This document shows, in pieces, positions 3,158-47,083 of a stretch of 64,000 bases of DNA. Below the pieces are notes generated by a model, which searched no databases, was not told the DNA's origin, and saw nothing but the letters and a program-made list of their open reading frames with translations. The translations under genes were made by a program, and so were the position numbers. The stretch's first letter is position 1; each line of letters starts with the position of its first letter. This stretch comes from a virus: IMG/VR virus record IMGVR_UViG_3300020442_000017, positions 28,305 to 92,304 of that record. One strand, 5' to 3'.

Positions 3158-3239
3158 GTTCCTTAAACAACTCAAGAAAGATCTTAAAAAACCTGGTACA
3201 CCACTAAGGAAACGTGACAAAATCAAGAACATTCATTGA
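3126..3239 (+). CDS. small basic hypothetical protein
   Basis: 37-aa MYKLTIKEHLKFLKQLKKDLKKPGTPLRKRDKIKNIH*, bridging its neighbours; not in track. Confidence 0.45.
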   Translation: MYKLTIKEHLKFLKQLKKDLKKPGTPLRKRDKIKNIH

Positions 3240-3840
3240 ACAATACCCTAATACATTAACACAAGAACAGTGTAAAACCTTGATCTCCCTATACAAACAA
3301 GATGATAGGAAAGTTCCTGGTACTATTTCACGTGGTATTGTAGATAAACGTATTAAACATAGTATGGATTTGCAATGCACATTCTCTGATAAGAAGAACT
3401 GGGCACAATACTCATCCATACTATATCAACCATTGAATGATGCCATCTTCAAATATGTAAATGAATACGACTATCTAATGGATCTTCCTCCATTTGAAGT
3501 ACAAGACAACTATAATATTCAAGCATATAAAAATGGTGAAGGTTTTGGTAAACTACATTGTGAACTACAAGGTATGGGTAATAGACTACTTGCATGGATG
3601 ATCTATCTTAATGATGCAGCATCTGGTACTGATTTCCCATGGCAAGATACAATAACACAAGCAGTAGAAGGTACATGTGTTATATGGCCAGCAGGTTTCA
3701 CTCACCCACATAGAGGAGTAACACCTAATAAAGGATATAAAGTCATTGCTACTGGATGGTGTCAATACATACCCAGAGAAGAAGAATTACCACATCTCAT
3801 GAGCACATACAAGAAGGCATTTCCACATAAGTTTGCTTGA
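3214..3840 (+). CDS. 2OG-Fe(II) oxygenase (prolyl-4-hydroxylase-like)
   Basis: HCE...RLLAWMIYLND...GTDF...IWPAGFTHPHRG...KVIATGW. Confidence 0.85.
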   Translation: MTKSRTFIEQYPNTLTQEQCKTLISLYKQDDRKVPGTISRGIVDKRIKHSMDLQCTFSDKKNWAQYSSILYQPLNDAIFKYVNEYDYLMDLPPFEVQDNYNIQAYKNGEGFGKLHCELQGMGNRLLAWMIYLNDAASGTDFPWQDTITQAVEGTCVIWPAGFTHPHRGVTPNKGYKVIATGWCQYIPREEELPHLMSTYKKAFPHKFA

Positions 3841-3994
3841 CACATCATACACATGGATACTATCCTTTCAACACATTTTACACACACCTCCGCACCTTGC
3901 AATGACTGGGTTTTCCACAGTTTTTGATGTGCTTGTGGAAAACTTTTAAAATCATTAAAAAAATATAGGTAACGTGCGGTGGAGAAGGTGTCTT

Positions 3995-4023
3995 AGCCTA
4001 CCACCTAACGAAAGTCAAGTCAA
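3995..4023 (-). promoter_or_regulatory. leftward sigma70-like promoter
   Basis: On the minus strand TTGACT(4023-4018)-17 nt-TAGGCT(4000-3995). Confidence 0.45.
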
Positions 4024-4053
4024 CCCTCAGAAACACTTTGAAACAATCACAGG

Positions 4054-4109
4054 GACACTTGGGGAACTGGCACACACCCCTTGACAATCCTCGGAAAACC
4101 GTGTATTAT
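4054..4109 (+). promoter_or_regulatory. early promoter with palindromic upstream motif (copy 1)
   Basis: GACACT-N6-ACTGGCACA (4054-4074), TTGACA 4081-4086, TATTAT 4104-4109. Confidence 0.8.
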
Positions 4110-4292
4110 TAAAACATGGACAACCGAGGAATTTCAAAAACTTCAAAAACTCACTTTTTTACTTTTTTAAGTTTTTTACTTTTTTAAAAAAGTGAGATTT
4201 ATGACTTTTTTCGTTTAATTCAGAGGTATTTTCCACAAACCCTGTGGAAAACTCCATATATTCAATATAAATCAACAAAATCATTACAAAAC

Positions 4293-4535
4293 ATGGCAAT
4301 TTACTCAAATTTTGAATCAACTGCTGTAAAATCTATTGAAACTACTCCAAATCAAGTAAAAGTAGTGTATAATAGTAATGAAAGTAAAGAATATGCATTT
4401 GATTGTGAAGATGTCCTAGAATTCGCCAACAATTTGTGTCAAGTTCTCATTGACGCTGAGTTGGATCGTCCCTCTGGAAGTGTCGGACGGTTTCTGTCAC
4501 AATCAATCAAGGATCGTGTCCTTATCGCTCAATAA
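4293..4535 (+). CDS. KTSC-like domain protein
   Basis: ESTAVKSI...VKVVY...EYAF...GSVGRFLSQSIK resembles the KTSC pattern. Confidence 0.5.
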   Translation: MAIYSNFESTAVKSIETTPNQVKVVYNSNESKEYAFDCEDVLEFANNLCQVLIDAELDRPSGSVGRFLSQSIKDRVLIAQ

Positions 4536-12945: not shown

Positions 12946-15900
12946 TGCCTAAAACTGCGAATAAAATCTCATTCTTAATTGAGTCACAATTACCTGATTT
13001 CATCAACGAAGAGTATGAACTTTTTACTAAGTTCATACAAAAGTACTATGAGCAGATTGAAATTCAAGGTCAACCGTTGGATATTATCAGTAATCTCCAA
13101 CAGTATCGTGATATTGATTTTTATGAGAAGAATGTATTACAACAGTCAACTACTACATCTGCATATGTCCAAAATGTAGACACTACAATTAGTGTTGTTG
13201 ATGCGACTTCATTCCCCAAGAATGGTGGTTATATCAAAATTGATGATGAGATTTGTTTTTATAGAGAAAGAACTGATAATCAGTTTTTAGAAGTAAGTCG
13301 TGGTGTTAGTGGAAACACGACCATTGGTGATTTATACGAGAAGAGTACTTTTGTAACTACTCAAGCAGACAATCATATTTCTGGTTCTACTGTACAGAAT
13401 ATCAGTAATCTTTTCTTATATTCTCTAGTAAAAAGTTTTGAAAAGGAATATCTAGATAATTTTCCTGAAGAGTATTTAAAAAATGATGTTGATAAGAGAA
13501 CACTTATCAAAAACATTACTTCTTTCTATAAAGCGAAAGGTACTGATCAATCAATTAAGTTCTTATTCAAATGTCTTGTTGACAATGATCCAGAACCACA
13601 AGTTTTATATCCAAGAGAACATACCTTAAAACCATCAGATTCTAATTGGATTAGTAACTATTCAATCAAGGCAAAAGTTTTATCAGGTAACGTTAACGAT
13701 CTCATTGGTAGAAAGATCACACAAACTACTGGTGAATATGCTTCTGCTATTGTAGATAACGTTCAGTATTCTGGTAAGTTTGATGGTGAAGATTTATATG
13801 AACTAATTTTAGCAGAAGGAAGTATTAATGGTTCATTTTCAGTTGCTGCTAGAACTAAATTAACCAAAAATATTTCACCAGGATTAGGTGTTGGTGATAG
13901 AGTTGATGTGTTTTCCACAATGGGTTGGGAAAATGAAGGTACGTTTACTGTTGGTAATGAAGTATTTTCTTATGAAGACAAGAATGTAAATCAATTTGTT
14001 ATTAAATCTAGGACTAGTAATGGTGTATACAGTGATGGAGATCCTGTATTCTTTGGTTCTAATGTAAGTGGTAATGGTGTAGAGTTATTAGTATACGGTA
14101 TTGTATACAACCTAGAAGCAGAAACTAAGTTTCCATATTCATCTACAGGTGATTCTGTAGATATTTCTGATGCAGGATTCCTCACAGATGATATTAGAAT
14201 CTTTGATTCTCAAAATAATCTTAGATGGACTATTGGTGGACTTCCACCTGCTGTAAGTGATTTAGTTTCTAATGTATCTGCAATCTTTGAGGATGCTGAC
14301 ACTTATTACATTGCTTCTTCAGGATTCCCATCTCATAGTATTGGCACACTCCCTGCTGATGCGGCAGATCAAAAGCATCTTAAGATCTTAAGAAAAAGAC
14401 CTATCTCAACTACTGAGTCTTATGAGACTCAATTTAGAGACGTTGGTATTGCCACAAATGGAGTTCCTTTCCTAAGTTACAAAGATGAAGATGTGATTCT
14501 CAATGGACCTCTTCAAAATATTGTTGTTAACAAGAGAGGTAATGGTTATAAGAAACCACCATTCATTCTTGTTAATGGTGTTGCTAATCAAGCAATTGCA
14601 AATCTTGCTGGTGAAGTAGTTGAATCAATTAGTATTACTACAGCAGGAAGTTATATTGATACACCTATAGTTGAAGTTGTATCTGGCAGAAATGGCACAG
14701 TAACTCCAATTGTTACTAATGGTGAGGTTACCAGTATTAGTATTGATAATGCTGGTGAATATTATTCTTCACCACCAGAAGTAAGGATTGCTGATCTTGC
14801 AGGCAAAGGACAATTTGCTGTGTTTAAAGCAGAAGTGTCAACTGCTGGTGAATTGACTGGTTTTGTTAAAGTAAATGGTGGTAAAGGATACACTCAAGGA
14901 AATATACTAGTAGATATCATTCCTGTTGGATCTGGTGCTGTTGCTACTGCCAATATCAAAGAATGGAGAAAAGACAGATTTGTAAAGACAAACGTAGATT
15001 CTGAGAATGGTACATTCTTTACCAATTACGTAAGTTCTAATGGTCAGGGATATGCATATCTAGCATCTCCTGCTACTTTGAGAGCAAATGATAATGGAGT
15101 AAATCATTCTCCTATTCTTGGATTTGCTTATGACGGAAATCCCATTTATGGTCCATATGGATACAGAGATAAATTAGATGCAAATTCACCAATCATTAGA
15201 ATGACATCTAGTTATGGTCCATCATCTACAAGAGTTGATGGTCCTGATGTAACTACATATCCAATCGGAACGTTCATTCAAGATTGGAATTATATCCATG
15301 AAAGAGGAACATTAGATAAAAATAATGGTCGTTATTGTGTCACACCAGAATTCCCAGAAGGTACATATGCATACTTCATCACGGTGGATGATCAGAATGC
15401 TCCTGTATTCCCTTATGTTATCGGCAAGTGTTATTATTCATTACCTGTTGACTCCAACTACAACTCTGAATTAAATCAGTATGATTTACCAAAGAGTGCA
15501 AGAAGATTAAGAACTAGTGATATTGAAAATAATGGTGGTGGTACATCATTACTAATAAAAGATGTAATTAGTGGAAATATTTCATCTGCAACTGTAGAAT
15601 CTTCTTCTGACAACTTTAGAGTTGGTTCTAAGTTAGTTATTGATAATAGTGGAACTGATGGAACTGGTATTGATGCGGAAGTTGAATCTGTAACAGGAAA
15701 GTCGGTACTCTCAATTGAGTCTCAAACTGATAAAGTATTATTTGTATCTCTAAAAGAATCTGCATATCTATTTGATGGTGATAGAGTCACACAAGGAGCA
15801 GCAACAGGTCGTGTTGTGGGTAATGTGTTCTCTGGTACTACATTTGCAATTAAGTCGGTCACAGGGTCTTGGAGTGCTTCTGGAACGCTAACTTCCGATA

Positions 15901-43200: not shown

Positions 43201-46200
43201 ATTGGTCTCAATGAGGTAGTAACTCTTGGTGCAGTATACACTGTTCCCAATCAAGTTACAACTCCAACCACATTCATTGATTACAATATTGTCAATGAAA
43301 CTGAAGATGAACTTCTTGATCATGGACACATTCTTGACAGTGTTCAGGTTGGAATGCCTGGCTGCATCTATGGAACTGTTGAAGTTCGTGGTGTTGCTGA
43401 TATTGCATTCACCCCCAATAATATTTCTAGGGGTGAATTGCAACTTAGAGGTGAAGCAAGAATCTTCAGCATTCTTAGAAATATTGGAGAAGGTACTCTA
43501 TTTGCAATTTCTGGTGCATCCAGTTCTTCTGGTGCTGCTTACGAATCAACAGGTCTATTCCAGACACTTGGATTTGCAGAGGTTGCTTTTGTCACAGAAT
43601 ATGCTGGATCTGGTGCATTCAGAAAACTCAGTGGTGTAGCGGAGTCTATTACCTTCAATCCACTGGAGAAGCAAATGCTCTTCTCCTTTACTGGTACTGC
43701 TGGAATTCCATCCATCACACTCAGTCATATTGGAGATGGCAATCTATTCACGTTTGATGGAACTACTGATAGCACCACATTTGCACATTATGGTTCTGGT
43801 GTTATCAGTCTCAGGTCCAAGAAACCAAGACCTGATGTTGACTCTGAAGAGAAGCATACCGAAGTATACGATCTTAACATTGATTGTATTCAACCAGAGT
43901 ATGATTATGGTTCACTTATTGACGCAGCACTTTCACAGTGTACGCCTACAAGTGGTCTAATAAATGCAACAACAACTGCACCTACTGGTTGTATTACTCT
44001 AGACGGTACACTTGGAATATATCCAAATGTAACTTATACAGTACCAGTTGCAGTTAACTCTCCAACTACTCTGTTTGATTACGGTACTGTTCCTGATCCA
44101 GAAGATGGAACGGATGATTATGGTTGGATTCTTGATCCAACTGGTAAGCATTGTCCATTCGGACAAATCCATCATATCAGAGGAAGTTCTGGTCCTAACT
44201 CCAGAACCTTCCGTGAAGTATTCACTGGTGAAAGTGAGCATAAGGTATACGGCATCAATATTTCTGGTGATGCAGAAATTGTTGTACCACCTCAGTGGTA
44301 TGGTTACGGTGTACTTGATGTCACATCACGTCCTATCTCCATCACTGGATTTAGTTTACGCACATTTGGTGGCGGTAATCTATTTGGTATTGGTGGTGGT
44401 GCAGAATCTGTTACGTTCGTTCCATCTGGTGGTCAGGTTCTATTCAAGTTTGTTCCTGGTCCGTTTGATAGATGGACAACATACGATTGGCAACCTTCTT
44501 GGCAAGGTAGAGGTGCGATTACGCTTCCTGACGGTGAAGCAGTTACACGTTATGTACCTCATGTTACTGGTACTGGTAACATTCCAGTATTCAGTGGTGC
44601 TGCTGAATCTCTCACTGTTAATCCAGAAGAAAGACAACTTCTATTCTCATTTACAGGAGAAGTTCAAGAAGCATTTGTTGCGAACCCACCAGAAAGAACT
44701 CTACAGATCAGTTTCAACAATCGTGGATTCACCACTGGTATATTCTTCGTTCCACATTATCCAGGCGATGGTCTTATCTCTGTTTCTGGAGATGCCAATA
44801 TTCATTATGTACCTCATGTTATTGGTACTGGATCTATTCCAGTATTCAATGGTGCAGCAGAATCTCTTACTGTCAATCCAGACGAAAGACAGATGCTATT
44901 CTCCTTTATCGGGGAACGTCTGTCAGAGAAGAAATCTGTTGCAGAGATTGGATTTGGAGATATTCTCTTCAGTGGTACATCTGGAGATCCATTACTTACA
45001 TTTGCAGAACAACCATTTGGTACAGTTCCTGTATCTGGAGAAGCACACATTGTTGCATCTCTACTCCATGTTGGTTCTGGTACATTCAGAAAACTCAGTG
45101 GTGCAGCGGAATCTGCAACATTCAACCCACAAGAAAGAGATCTTCTATTCTCCTTTACTGGAGAAAGAATTGCAGAATCTACAAGCTTCAGCGAAGTTGC
45201 TTCTGGAACTCTGTTTGGATTCAGTGGAGCATCAGAGACATTTGCGTTTGCTTACGAAACTCAAGGTCTATTCAGAGTTGCAGACGAAGCTCTGGTTGTT
45301 GCATCTCTACTCCATGTCGGTTCTGGTACTATCAGAAAGTTTGCTGGAGCAGCAGAATCTCTTACCGTCAATCCAGACGAAAGACAACTTCTATTCTCTT
45401 TCACTGGAGAAGGATCACAGTCTCTCACTGTTGCTGAGACCAAACAGGTTGAAATTGATATTACTGGTAAGGCAGATCCAGTTCTTAGAACTCAAGCATT
45501 CCATGGTTCTGGAACCTTTACTGTCACTGGTGAAGTTGGTGTTAAATATGTACCCAACAACGTTGGATTTGGTAATATCTTTGCTATCAATGGTGCAGCA
45601 GAGTCTATCACTGTCAATCCAGACGAGAAGCAAATGCTCTTCTCGTTCCTTGGAGAAGTTGCAGACAGCGTTACTGTCAGAGAAATCAGCAAAGGTGGAA
45701 CTCTTACATTCACTGGTACATCTGGAGATCCATTACTCTCATTTGCAGAGAGTGGATTTGGTCAGACAAAACTTCGTGGAAAGGTTCGCTTTACTACACA
45801 TCGCAGTATCTTTGGTACTGGTTCCTTCAGGAAGTTTGGTGGATCTGCGGAAGCAGTTGCATTCAATCCAGTGGAAAGGGATGCACTGTTCAGATTCGTT
45901 GGAGATGCTACGCACAAAATTACCAGTGTTTACATTGGTTCTGGTTCTCTCAGAAAACTCAGTGGTGCAGCAGAGGCAGTTGCCTTCAATCCAGACGAAA
46001 GACAAATGCTCTTCTCCTTCGCTGGAGATGGTGCAGATTCCAGAACAGCGAGAGAAGTCAGTCAGGGTGGAACTCTCAAAACATCTGGAACAGCAAAAGT
46101 TCTTGTCAGTTTTGCACACGCTGGCGAAGGTACAATTCCTCTCAGTGGCGATGCTCGCACTACAAGAGCAAGAGACTTTGTTGGATTTGGATCTATTCCA

Positions 46201-46584
46201 GTATTCAGAGGTGCAGCAGAATCTCTCACCTTCAATCCAACAGAAAGAGAAATTCTCTTCTCCTTCAATGGAGAGCGTATATCAGAGAAGACTACCGCAA
46301 GAGAACTCAGTCAAGGTGGCACTCTTCTTGTTGGTAGTGAACTTGAAGCAATACGACTCACATTCAGTGAGCAACCTCATGTTGAGATTGCAGTTAATGG
46401 CGACAGTGTTGACCTACGTGCCTTTGCATATCAAGGATCTGGAAGAATTTCCAATGTCAATAATGTTGAGGATTCATTTGTACGTGCTCCATGGCAGGCT
46501 AGCGGCACAGTCAAGATTACAGGTGATGCACTCATTCAAGTACAACTCTTCCAGCCAGAGTTCGTACAGGTTTGGATTATCTAA
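40279..46584 (+). CDS. large repetitive virion structural/fibre protein
   Basis: 2101 aa with about 12 copies of G.AES.T(F/V)NP.ERQ.LFSF.G, plus DYG repeats. Confidence 0.75.
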   Translation: MTVYSYNTIGVFPSIIRTASGGLGSFSYVYEPSIIDLFIEIDYGTLAFDTTPVTTTTTVLVDDLNATLTNTILSDTGTGTGTTGGFNIGRHIRFNSTNKPRTVEFSLPNNIDSSLTFEVIRGNDANGGEDPDTLAESLNLEYYDGSSWTSIDTVVAYNDATFNTLKSVEITIPSVARAAGTQFRLIQPDHSGNNWDNYGLKSVAYTHTSTPVLPTKDLGNITDLNATIEDRGRIFYVTNVESFGFAKTLNAASWKATSAWVGEGSLISFGRQTSPAVYGYIADGKVRSLQGTADVEFTAVDGGSGFFPLQGSAIIGITADIIGSGRFTTLSGSAESVAVNPDERQILFSFTGQRSSERTTNIYNGVGTLSNLASLEEDRGFAWYGSGVITLQSNNDERKTDNYNHTSIVPWSTRDFGNITQCNAEEIVSGDLSGQAATGCTIVVEPNTTARVVLGQTYQTAQDVNYPSTFIDWGTITFPAAMSQDWGNILDRELRPQGLIRIDVEKGAASIFQPNWVGRGGLRLRGKATLPVFANEKGTGILHKIRGVAITNFSLLQPGDGLFKFVSDASSSTGVEAFGSGSFKKFGGAAESSTFNPLEEQILFSFGGAYSNLKFTHGTWIGSGRINNIASLEAEKGSFDYVGSGEINIISRKPVWPEDSDEKHTEAYNFSAFVPSIDLDYGLIVDITNVVVTELTTQTISTDTTAPSGVIRVGLNETVTLSAVYNVPNTTSVPTITDDYGLVSEVHDPTTDYGWILGTHAHGIPFGTVADITGTSENPRTRTYIASGDGLFKITGKARLPLFASVFGGGLFKPQGASVTNFSLLAPGDGHINGMYGEGAESTVTEYYGDGAFRKLSGAAESASFNPLERQMLFSFNGAVQNLAFAHGTFGGDGVLFTFEGGGERTSYDYVGSGSILTFNKLEEARTYFYNCSSIVPFLDIDYGLIVDQANAAVTDLTTQTISSDEIAATGSVRIGLNEVVTLGAVYTVPNQVTTPTTFIDYNIVNETEDELLDHGHILDSVQVGMPGCIYGTVEVRGVADIAFTPNNISRGELQLRGEARIFSILRNIGEGTLFAISGASSSSGAAYESTGLFQTLGFAEVAFVTEYAGSGAFRKLSGVAESITFNPLEKQMLFSFTGTAGIPSITLSHIGDGNLFTFDGTTDSTTFAHYGSGVISLRSKKPRPDVDSEEKHTEVYDLNIDCIQPEYDYGSLIDAALSQCTPTSGLINATTTAPTGCITLDGTLGIYPNVTYTVPVAVNSPTTLFDYGTVPDPEDGTDDYGWILDPTGKHCPFGQIHHIRGSSGPNSRTFREVFTGESEHKVYGINISGDAEIVVPPQWYGYGVLDVTSRPISITGFSLRTFGGGNLFGIGGGAESVTFVPSGGQVLFKFVPGPFDRWTTYDWQPSWQGRGAITLPDGEAVTRYVPHVTGTGNIPVFSGAAESLTVNPEERQLLFSFTGEVQEAFVANPPERTLQISFNNRGFTTGIFFVPHYPGDGLISVSGDANIHYVPHVIGTGSIPVFNGAAESLTVNPDERQMLFSFIGERLSEKKSVAEIGFGDILFSGTSGDPLLTFAEQPFGTVPVSGEAHIVASLLHVGSGTFRKLSGAAESATFNPQERDLLFSFTGERIAESTSFSEVASGTLFGFSGASETFAFAYETQGLFRVADEALVVASLLHVGSGTIRKFAGAAESLTVNPDERQLLFSFTGEGSQSLTVAETKQVEIDITGKADPVLRTQAFHGSGTFTVTGEVGVKYVPNNVGFGNIFAINGAAESITVNPDEKQMLFSFLGEVADSVTVREISKGGTLTFTGTSGDPLLSFAESGFGQTKLRGKVRFTTHRSIFGTGSFRKFGGSAEAVAFNPVERDALFRFVGDATHKITSVYIGSGSLRKLSGAAEAVAFNPDERQMLFSFAGDGADSRTAREVSQGGTLKTSGTAKVLVSFAHAGEGTIPLSGDARTTRARDFVGFGSIPVFRGAAESLTFNPTEREILFSFNGERISEKTTARELSQGGTLLVGSELEAIRLTFSEQPHVEIAVNGDSVDLRAFAYQGSGRISNVNNVEDSFVRAPWQASGTVKITGDALIQVQLFQPEFVQVWII

Positions 46585-46586
46585 AA

Positions 46587-46594
46587 TATAAATA
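46587..46594 (+). promoter_or_regulatory. T4-type late promoter
   Basis: TATAAATA. Confidence 0.75.
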
Positions 46595-46621
46595 TACTTG
46601 AGAAGAAAGTGTACGTAAATA

Positions 46622-47083
46622 ATGACCACTCAGGTACAATTTAGAAAAGGTACAACTTCAGAACACGCCATTTTCACTGGTGCTAATGCAGAGATAACAG
46701 TTGATACTGAAAAGAAAACAGCTGTTGTACATGATGGAAGTGATGTTGGTGGTTTTGAATTACAACGTGCTCGCTGGGAAGTAGTTGACACATCAGGAGA
46801 TTTATCCTGTGGTGTTAAATATCTTCTTGACACAAGCAGTGGTGCTTTAACATTGCAAATGCCATATGAATCAAATGGGGTAGTACCTCATGTAGGTGAT
46901 ATGCTTGAAATGACTGACTTTAAAGCAACATGGGCTATAAATAATGTTACTTTAACAACAACTGGTAACAGTCAGTTATTCTTAAACAAATTTGGAAACA
47001 CTGATTCAACCTTTGTATTAGATGTCGCTGGACTTTATGTTCAGTTTGTTTGGGACGGAACTTACTGGAGGATCTTAGCATGA
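46622..47083 (+). CDS. fibre-associated protein with Mtd-N-like domain
   Basis: MTTQVQFRKGTTSEHAIFTGANAEITVDTEKKTAVVHDG; C-terminal YLLDTSSGALTL..P...GD module. Confidence 0.7.
   Translation: MTTQVQFRKGTTSEHAIFTGANAEITVDTEKKTAVVHDGSDVGGFELQRARWEVVDTSGDLSCGVKYLLDTSSGALTLQMPYESNGVVPHVGDMLEMTDFKATWAINNVTLTTTGNSQLFLNKFGNTDSTFVLDVAGLYVQFVWDGTYWRILA

Follow-up and report, generated by a model that had tools for sequence, protein, structure and literature searches.

One question raised by the largest gene-free gap in a 64,000-nucleotide stretch of viral DNA (hereafter the window; positions 28305-92304 of the 92,304-bp IMG/VR contig IMGVR_UViG_3300020442_000017) is whether it is the site where the virus starts or times replication and early transcription. 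The first-pass annotation of this DNA had read the gap as a mirror-symmetric, RNA-primed bidirectional origin with divergent promoters and paired cyanobacterial-type DnaA boxes, which might recruit or titrate the DnaA of the host. The gap is a conserved, single-copy cassette, widespread in T4-like cyanophages (Kyanoviridae), and it is a good, still unproven candidate for such a site. The explanation that we tentatively favour, while granting it somewhat less than an even chance, is that of a control cassette, made of a promoter and an unwinding block, on which host DnaA would dock and which would work like oriF/oriG of T4 and pR/pO of lambda.

Four perfect DnaA boxes within one gap

The gap (3841-4292, 452 nt) is, as annotated, the longest stretch of the window free of plus-strand open reading frames. 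Four copies of the 9-mer TTTTCCACA were located in it, at 3911-3919 (+), 3934-3942 (-), 4229-4237 (+) and 4243-4251 (-), confirming the two inverted pairs that had been described. This 9-mer is the cyanobacterial DnaA box used by Ori-Finder and DoriC, and it is bound in vitro by DnaA of Cyanothece (PMC2275245, PMC4674748); the identity given to it by the annotation agrees with this literature. Five copies are present in the window, where 1.39 were expected (standard deviation 1.2), a number reached by one of 100 shuffles. The 92-kb contig holds six copies, four of which form two head-to-head pairs within 341 bp, inside a stretch of 452 bp in which chance would provide about 0.01. Counting over the whole contig, which had been proposed as a check, therefore showed that the 9-mer is enriched and that four of its six copies lie inside the gap, as a cluster of host-consensus DnaA boxes. 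Near-boxes are found beside the pairs (TTTCCACA at 3820 and TTTTACACA at 3876).

The fifth copy of the window, at 13911-13919, stands just 5' of an in-frame ATG at 13920. It was considered as a second site and discarded, since it sits within a long reading frame that seems to begin near 12946 and has probably arisen there by chance.

The boxes among reference phages and environmental contigs

The syntenic gaps of 10 reference cyanomyoviruses, representing at least six genera, were taken using the gene for an 80-amino acid protein directly downstream as anchor. Only S-RIM32 and Sf-CH3 have boxes in this gap, in both cases immediately upstream of a conserved core that follows pair 1 in our phage (Table 1). 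Three boxes are present in S-RIM32 (one on the plus strand and two on the minus strand), and three direct repeats in Sf-CH3. All five perfect boxes of the 194-kb S-RIM32 genome fall within 1.1 kb at the syntenic place, and a complete 182-kb genome (G204) has four of its six within 660 bp (45973-46631). No box cluster was found anywhere in the genomes of seven of the references.

IMG/VR was then scanned with the core motif alone, so as to avoid selection by boxes, and 63 non-identical modules with sufficient flank were obtained. At least one perfect box was present within -250 to +450 in 37 of them (59%). Boxes stand upstream of the core in 34 modules, downstream in 11 and on both sides in eight, and the upstream ones concentrate 10-130 bp before the core. 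Box density was 2.0 per kb in the cassette versus 0.03 per kb elsewhere in the same loci, and one-mismatch variants, TTATCCACA included, were also enriched in the box-bearing modules. Conservation of the layout in related cyanophages had also been suggested as a check. It holds for the cassette, which occupies the syntenic place in the 10 references and in the 63 modules, but not for boxes on both sides (8/63).

The converse scan of IMG/VR, with the pattern TTTTCCACA-N(1-25)-TGTGGAAAA, retrieved at least 120 loci. Among the matches listed, spacers of 14 and 4 nt dominate, the former being the commonest (39 of 139 pairs), and clusters reach up to eight boxes per 500 bp. Homologues of the window genes between 4293 and 13920, but of no other part of the contig, are carried by most of the listed loci, indicating that the arrays keep their genomic place. 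The flanks of the 9-mer in the phage pairs (tAG-TTTTCCACA-Gg) are more extended than those of the host box. Both pairs are retained in the closest relatives found, L398 and L009, whose proteins encoded directly downstream are 78% and 60% identical to the one in the window. Pair 1 keeps its boxes and its 14-nt spacer, with one change in one box of L009, and pair 2 keeps both boxes around an unrelated 14-nt spacer, versus 5 nt here.

Both pairs also fold well as RNA, with -14.9 kcal/mol (z -2.7) for pair 1 and -13.5 kcal/mol (z -3.7) for the pair 2 hairpin, which has no U-tail. This is compatible with another explanation, in which the pairs are mRNA stem-loops at a terminator-promoter boundary resembling the PeSL, a stem-loop with a host-type early promoter found at gene-unit boundaries in the variable early region of T4-like phages (PMC2839356, PMC4122927), and the match to the DnaA box is incidental. 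Pair 1 would form the 3' end of the upstream unit, or serve it as terminator or stability element, and pair 2 would be a leader structure at the 5' end of the downstream one. CUUUU follows pair 1; box-less relatives have another palindrome at the same place, so that the hairpin would be conserved and its sequence not; and the phage has PeSL-like units with G5/C5 hairpins and T-runs within its promoters (PMC4122927). However, neither pair passed the intrinsic terminator scan (the loop of one is 14 nt long, and the other lacks a T-tail), loops of 14-25 nt dominate among the pairs listed, and one and the same 9-mer is reused in at least 120 contigs with free spacers. Moreover, the arrays of Sf-CH3 and of many contigs have their boxes in the same orientation and cannot form hairpins. 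Direct-repeat arrays, together with spacers that change between unchanged boxes, indicate that selection acts on the sequence of the 9-mer and not only on a hairpin. Hence, we consider the hairpin explanation improbable, and the comparison of relatives supports the view that the 9-mers are protein sites recognized by their sequence, which matches the DnaA box of the host. The alternative given in the annotation, a pair of structured non-coding RNAs, found no support either: Rfam gave no match at gathering score (chance-level matches only, E >2), RNAalifold gave no consensus fold of the core on either strand, and ARAGORN detected no tRNA in the region.

A conserved core and a fixed order of elements

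In a blastn search with the region, the sole match was a non-coding block of 70-110 nt (window 3910-4027; 73-84% identity), which falls in unannotated gaps of S-RIM32, S-CAM4, ACG-2014e/j, S-H9-1 and Sf-CH3. At the DNA level the core is better conserved than the flanking genes. In all 10 references the order of the cassette is the same: a variable array slot, the core, GTGnCAC...GTGGCACA, a -10 hexamer, an AT-rich palindrome and the start of the 80-amino acid gene. The invariant words of the core are GTCTTAGC/GGCTTAGC and, 11 nt further, CGAAAGTCAAG; no variation was seen in the columns CTTAGC...GTCAA of 11 aligned phages, and the run AAAAAAyATAGG is conserved among relatives as well. The two T-rich tracts that had been noted were recovered, 3945-3968 being A-rich on the plus strand and 4153-4212 having 35 T in 60 nt. 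We treat the core as a conserved bipartite element without assigned role.

Read on the minus strand, the core is also the place of the annotated leftward promoter, in the register TTGACT-17-TAAGAC (4018->3990) or TTGACT-17-TAGGCT (4023->3995). The latter, which is the one proposed, is indeed present, but its second hexamer matches in three of six positions and lies below the scan threshold. The pattern TTGAC(T/A)-17-TAAG(A/C)C is exact in the 11 aligned phages, with a -10 hexamer without the final T. In L398 and L009 the leftward halves are 5 bp further apart, and only the register TTGACW-17-yAGGCT survives. The weak leftward -10 and the shifting spacing in the closest relatives put the terms 'bidirectional' and 'mirror-symmetric' on weak ground, and a leftward transcript is possible, not supported. 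Readings of the core as a MotA-type middle promoter, as a sigma-54 or SigF-type promoter or as a small open reading frame were rejected, since the spacing or key bases do not fit.

The rightward promoter fared better. It matches 11 of 12 consensus positions and has the top score within 3 kb, in a region where promoter-like matches overall (12 versus 10.7 expected) are not above chance. Its -10 hexamer aligns with TATAAT in eight of the 10 reference phages, and the consensus -35 is restricted to this phage and a few relatives. Together with its upstream element it belongs to a family with seven copies between -2374 and 7720 in window coordinates, each built as (A/C)CA(G/C)TT-N6-(G/C)TGGCACA followed after 29-32 nt (mostly 29) by TATAAT, TATTAT or TATTGT. 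In several copies a G5/C5 stem-loop and a T-run are lodged between element and hexamer, and these units look like composite terminator-promoter units of the PeSL kind. The inverted repeat CCTCGG/CCGAGG, over the -10 hexamer and the predicted start, could be an operator; similar CCTC...GAGG arms occur in S-CAM4 and ACG-2014e.

An A+T-rich element follows directly, starting about 15 nt past the predicted transcription start. The perfect 12-bp inverted repeat reported in it (4150-4161/4185-4196) was confirmed and extends to arms of 26 nt (4136-4161/4185-4210) with 81% complementarity. Repeats had been reported in the same tract, and four of the six window copies of ACTTTTTT do lie within 4153-4211; the block carries 9-bp and 8-bp repeats. 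Positions 4131-4210 (82% A+T) rank among the least stable 0.1% of all 80-mers in the contig. In relatives, a palindrome with an A-arm and a T-arm (CAAAAA and its complement) is kept at this position with a sequence that differs between phages. Pair 2 lies in what would be the transcribed leader of the rightward promoter. Over the 63 modules, z values for leader structure were below -2 in 44%, versus 18% of the controls (mononucleotide shuffles).

Arrays in the slot of box-less relatives

The slot occupied by pair 1 is filled differently in relatives without boxes. Box-less references and modules show GGTTCTCAATAAG...TTATTGAGAATCAATAA, i.e. palindromes of the form TTCTCAATAA-N9-TTATTGAGAA, in this position. 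The word TCTCAATAA occurs there at 1.23 per kb versus 0.027 per kb outside (45-fold enrichment). The same word forms the core both of the FurA consensus of Anabaena, AAATAAATTCTCAATAAAT, and of the best-scoring site in the furA promoter (Gonzalez et al. 2014, PMC4005646). In one IMG/VR contig (L356) the core is directly preceded by an iteron-like tandem array. The slot thus takes different arrays that resemble protein sites, depending on the lineage, which suggests that DnaA is an input and not the engine of the cassette. Such interchangeable arrays are compatible both with operator arrays and with classical replicons composed of an initiator array and an AT-rich block. In S-H9-1, S-RSM4 and S-WAM2, the palindrome is followed by a repeat of the sequence that ends the upstream gene at its 3' side (ATTGAGAATCAATAA).

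Two further explanations involve the slot. In the first, the cassette is a transcriptional operator array with no role in replication: DnaA on both pairs would act as a roadblock or insulator, pair 1 stopping read-through from the unit of the upstream oxygenase gene or a leftward transcript, pair 2 throttling entry into the operon opened by the 80-amino acid protein, which has a KTSC domain, and early expression would be tied to the DnaA status of the host. This accounts well for a slot that holds different host-regulator-like sites by lineage (DnaA boxes in 59% of modules and FurA-core palindromes otherwise), for the boxes that in some modules overlap the predicted leftward start (offsets -15 to -28), for the position of pair 2 within the transcribed leader and for a promoter drawn from an ordinary multi-copy family. 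What it leaves unexplained is the conservation across genera, at 80-84% DNA identity, of a core of about 70 nt, given that the promoter family otherwise consists of short motifs, and the maintenance of an AT-rich palindrome despite its changing sequence. In addition, the seven copies of a 22-bp tandem repeat in one module are iteron-like and more typical of replicons, and the palindromes are linked to Fur by resemblance. We regard this explanation as a serious one, if doubtful.

The second goes further than the favoured one: the cassette would be the primary origin of T4-like cyanophages, a unit of promoter and unwinding element activated by transcription and equipped with interchangeable slot arrays (DnaA boxes, Fur-type palindromes or iterons). 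If so, lineages would license the first round of replication via different sensors of host state, here the replication initiator of the host. This stronger claim we hold to be unlikely.

Candidate reader of the boxes

The next question is which protein would read the boxes. DnaA domain IV (PF08299) was found neither in the contig nor in S-RIM32 or the complete G204, and the best score in Sf-CH3 (14 bits) is below the cut-off. Host DnaA would be the simplest reader. If so, the boxes might merely soak up host DnaA, as datA does, and shut off host initiation without acting in cis. As high-affinity sites they follow the consensus more perfectly than the boxes near dnaN of the low-GC genomes sampled, and their copy number would rise with phage replication. 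However, a sink would not need a single conserved place beside one core motif, there are only four sites per genome, and many relatives have no boxes. A pure sink is accordingly very improbable.

The cyanobacterial genomes gave a mixed picture. In five small genomes perfect TTTTCCACA is no commoner than a reversed control, and in small genomes of high GC only scattered one-mismatch boxes appear near dnaN. A seven-box cluster of the perfect 9-mer, inverted pairs included, is present in one cyanobacterial genome (G001). A scan of genome contigs for inverted pairs returned many phyla among the matches listed and is uninformative on the host.

A possible mechanism and the evidence against it

The mechanism proposed here builds on the two box pairs, the predicted promoter and the block behind it; that DnaA binds, that the promoter is active and that an R-loop or a start of replication arises are inferences. 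Host DnaA would dock on both box pairs, that is, in the array slot and at the position just before the gene. Once docked, it would set how much of the rightward transcription starting near 4116 crosses the melting-prone 4131-4215. Transcription into this unwinding element would open the duplex so that phage replication can enter its first round, and the same transcript would also express the KTSC operon. DnaA would be an accessory, lineage-specific input, not an essential initiator. The cassette may fire replication, or it may only gate transcription.

Several observations weigh against this explanation. Among non-overlapping 80-mer windows of the contig, 4131-4210 ranks only 12th in instability, and the AT-rich block could instead serve as a 5' leader, U-rich and structured, for a gene in which no ribosome-binding site is obvious. 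Being one of seven copies of its family, the rightward promoter is ordinary for this phage; the gap is set apart by its core, its AT palindrome and its boxes, not by the promoter. The boxes of each pair face inward, with the AT tracts on the TTTT side. In oriC of Escherichia coli the unwinding element lies on the CACA side of box R1, so that the order of box and unwinding element here is unlike that one. Boxes, degenerate ones included, are lacking in 41% of the modules, which have other repeats instead, so that DnaA cannot be essential to the cassette. The cumulative GC skew, also put forward as a check, only flattens, without turning, in the window, in the contig and in the complete genome G204; in a genome with nearly all of its transcription on one strand, however, GC skew carries no information on this point. 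Furthermore, no replication, RNA or binding data for this or related phages were found in the literature searched.

The host genomes add to these points. Perfect head-to-head pairs were found in four of 201 cyanobacterial genomes, and three low-GC cyanobacterial genomes (1.8-2.2 Mb) have clusters of six to eight TTTTCTACA, not of TTTTCCACA, upstream of dnaN. The rarity of such pairs in hosts and the use of TTTTCTACA at dnaN indicate that the phage arrays are not copies of a host origin. The phage boxes are consensus-strength sites in a phage-specific geometry, which leaves some room for a different reader, i.e. a phage-encoded protein or another DNA-binding protein of the host that shares the sequence of the DnaA box. 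The abundance of perfect head-to-head pairs in phage contigs, the extended flanks of the 9-mer and the use of other variants beside dnaN in genomes of the probable host type point in this direction. On the other hand, the match to the DnaA consensus is exact (9/9), the enriched variants include TTATCCACA, no DnaA-like domain above the cut-off is encoded in the phage genomes searched, no candidate phage protein was identified, and the neighbouring KTSC protein has no obvious DNA-binding fold in its predicted structure. We give a different reader little probability.

Taken together, the parts of the proposed bidirectional origin that stand are the anatomy of a promoter plus an AT-rich block and the conserved boxes. 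Its two-directional character is less well supported: the leftward promoter is weak, the skew shows no inflection and few modules have boxes on both sides (8/63).

T4-like cyanophages are among the most abundant marine viruses, and no mapped replication origin of theirs, nor any host-factor input to their early programme, was found in the literature searched. A single-copy conserved cassette with exact sites for the host initiator is a precise and cheap experimental handle on where DNA synthesis starts and on whether these phages read the replication status of the host (or, in relatives, its iron status). Cultured phages offer a natural comparison set, S-RIM32 and Sf-CH3 with boxes versus S-CAM4 and S-RSM4 without. 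Even if the boxes only gate transcription, they would add a new case in which a phage with a strictly lytic life borrows a global regulator of its host.

The virus and the neighbourhood of the gap

The genes of the contig (CheckV completeness about 48%) and its nearest relatives are those of T4-like cyanomyoviruses (Kyanoviridae) of marine Synechococcus; comparison by blastn and tblastn found no close relative at the DNA level in the phage collection. Near-identical copies of the cassette are present on other IMG/VR contigs (L348, L396 and L397), with a KTSC protein 99% identical. The stretch was also found in marine metagenome runs of several studies (2014-2025), which indicates that this phage type is widespread, and, with small shares, in two metatranscriptome runs.

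The gap lies in an early region of small genes, and all its flanking genes are on the plus strand. The 2OG-Fe(II) oxygenase family gene before it is the final gene of the preceding transcription unit, and the same family is annotated upstream of the syntenic gap in S-RIM32 and Sf-CH3. Downstream there is a series of small plus-strand genes of unassigned function. The first of them, the KTSC gene, has homologues in 24 phage records by tblastn, and PF13619 (KTSC) matches four of 31 homologues of its product (best E 5e-6). The AlphaFold model of this protein (pLDDT 93) has KTSC proteins as its top folds (4rgi and 7x8c, TM 0.56-0.68), with weak Foldseek E-values of 0.2-0.5 for these two and none <0.001. 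It was considered as a DNA-binding regulator and rejected, its predicted fold being not obviously DNA-binding. The features of the gap and of the loci compared with it are collected in Table 1.

Table 1. Features of the gap, its neighbours and comparison loci (window coordinates unless a contig is named)
Feature	Position	Strand	Remarks
2OG-Fe(II) oxygenase family gene	3214..3840	+	PF13640 E 7e-6; phrog_61 E 1e-33
DnaA-box pair 1, GTTTTCCACA-N14-TGTGGAAAAC	3910..3943		head-to-head; centre-to-centre 23 bp
A-rich tract (T-rich on minus) between pair 1 and core	3945..3968		14 A and 8 T of 24
Single-copy conserved core, ATAGGTAAyGTGCGG...GTCTTAGC-N11-CGAAAGTCAAGTCAA	3961..4023		blastn and multi-phage alignments
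Upstream promoter element, ...ACTTGGGGAACTGGCACA	4047..4074	+	of the multi-copy (G/C)TGGCACA family; seen in relatives too
Rightward sigma-70-type promoter, TTGACA-17-TATTAT	4081..4109	+	predicted start near 4116
Inverted repeat CCTCGG/CCGAGG	4089-4094 / 4124-4129		spans -10 and predicted start of rightward promoter
AT-rich block, 82% A+T, CAAAAA and ACTTTTTT repeats	4131..4215		imperfect palindrome
DnaA-box pair 2, ATTTTCCACA-N5-TGTGGAAAAC	4228..4252		head-to-head; 41 nt before start codon
KTSC-domain protein, 80 amino acids, phrog_4357	4293..4535	+	opens downstream unit; syntenic with cassette in all relatives
Promoter family copies	-2374, 4067, 4730, 5161, 6291, 6720, 7720		by repeat motif
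TTCTCAATAA-N9-TTATTGAGAA palindromes	L124 1140-1190 (S-H9-1); L125 1140-1185 (S-RSM4); L127 1150-1200 (S-WAM2)		also in many IMG/VR modules
Iteron-like array, 22-bp unit (GAAATAGTGCTAGAAATATTAT), 7.2 tandem copies	L356 320-478		directly upstream of core; one IMG/VR contig
TTTTCTACA clusters	L257 2031-2195; L258 1149-1326; L259 2029-2192		directly upstream of dnaN

Comparison with known systems

The cassette shares traits with several known systems. The seven promoter units of one family, several of them with a GC hairpin and a T-run, are like PeSLs. PeSLs, however, are short, multi-copy and GC-stemmed, whereas the gap adds a single-copy core, an AT palindrome and stems made of exact DnaA boxes; its core, AT block and box-stem hairpins are not multi-copy, and the hairpins fail the terminator scan. 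As for the cyanobacterial FurA box (PMC4005646), the TTCTCAATAA palindromes of box-less relatives are identical to its consensus core, whereas the gap of the window has no such palindrome. This likeness is one of resemblance in AT-rich sequence, where chance is not negligible.

Cyanobacterial oriC regions (PMC2275245, PMC4674748, PMC8287927) have the same 9-mer in both orientations, clustered next to AT-rich DNA. They are linked to dnaA or dnaN, neither of which stands beside this gap, and perfect head-to-head pairs are rare in cyanobacterial genomes (4/201), whereas the boxes of the gap form such pairs and face away from the AT tracts. The sampled low-GC genomes, moreover, use TTTTCTACA near dnaN where the gap uses TTTTCCACA. 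In the basal unwinding system a DnaA box is separated by no more than 16 bp from at least three NAN trios, which lead into AT-rich DNA (PMC8287927). In the gap, a series of six NAN triplets begins 4 nt past the 3934-3942 box, on its TTTT side, in an A-run where chance predicts so permissive a pattern.

In T4, oriF and oriG are about 100 bp long and combine a promoter with an A+T-rich unwinding element whose sequence is free (Kreuzer and Brister 2010, PMC3016281), and oriE depends on an early promoter and has iterons (PMC3016281). The phage studied here likewise has a T4-type replisome and a predicted promoter followed by an A+T-rich block. The promoters of oriF and oriG are MotA-dependent middle promoters, whereas the one in the gap is of host type and has an upstream element, (G/C)TGGCACA, that is specific to the phage; cyanophages are not known to encode MotA. 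DnaA boxes of the host are absent from the T4 origins, whereas this cassette has four. In addition, oriE, oriF and oriG lie at a switch of transcribed strand or nucleotide bias, and the cassette is not at such a switch.

In lambda, DnaA-protected boxes lie downstream of pO beside ori, and opposing promoters set the firing of the origin (PMC3985674), which depends on transcription and is modulated by DnaA (PMC3985674). The resemblance would lie in oppositely oriented promoters at a candidate origin and in DnaA-box-like sites, protected by DnaA in vitro in lambda, past the leftward one. Lambda has its own initiator O, with iterons within the O gene, and no such gene was seen here; the leftward promoter of the gap is doubtful; and the boxes of lambda are imperfect, whereas the gap has four perfect boxes in two palindromic pairs. 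For host DnaA at the origin of a phage, lambda offers the closest precedent.

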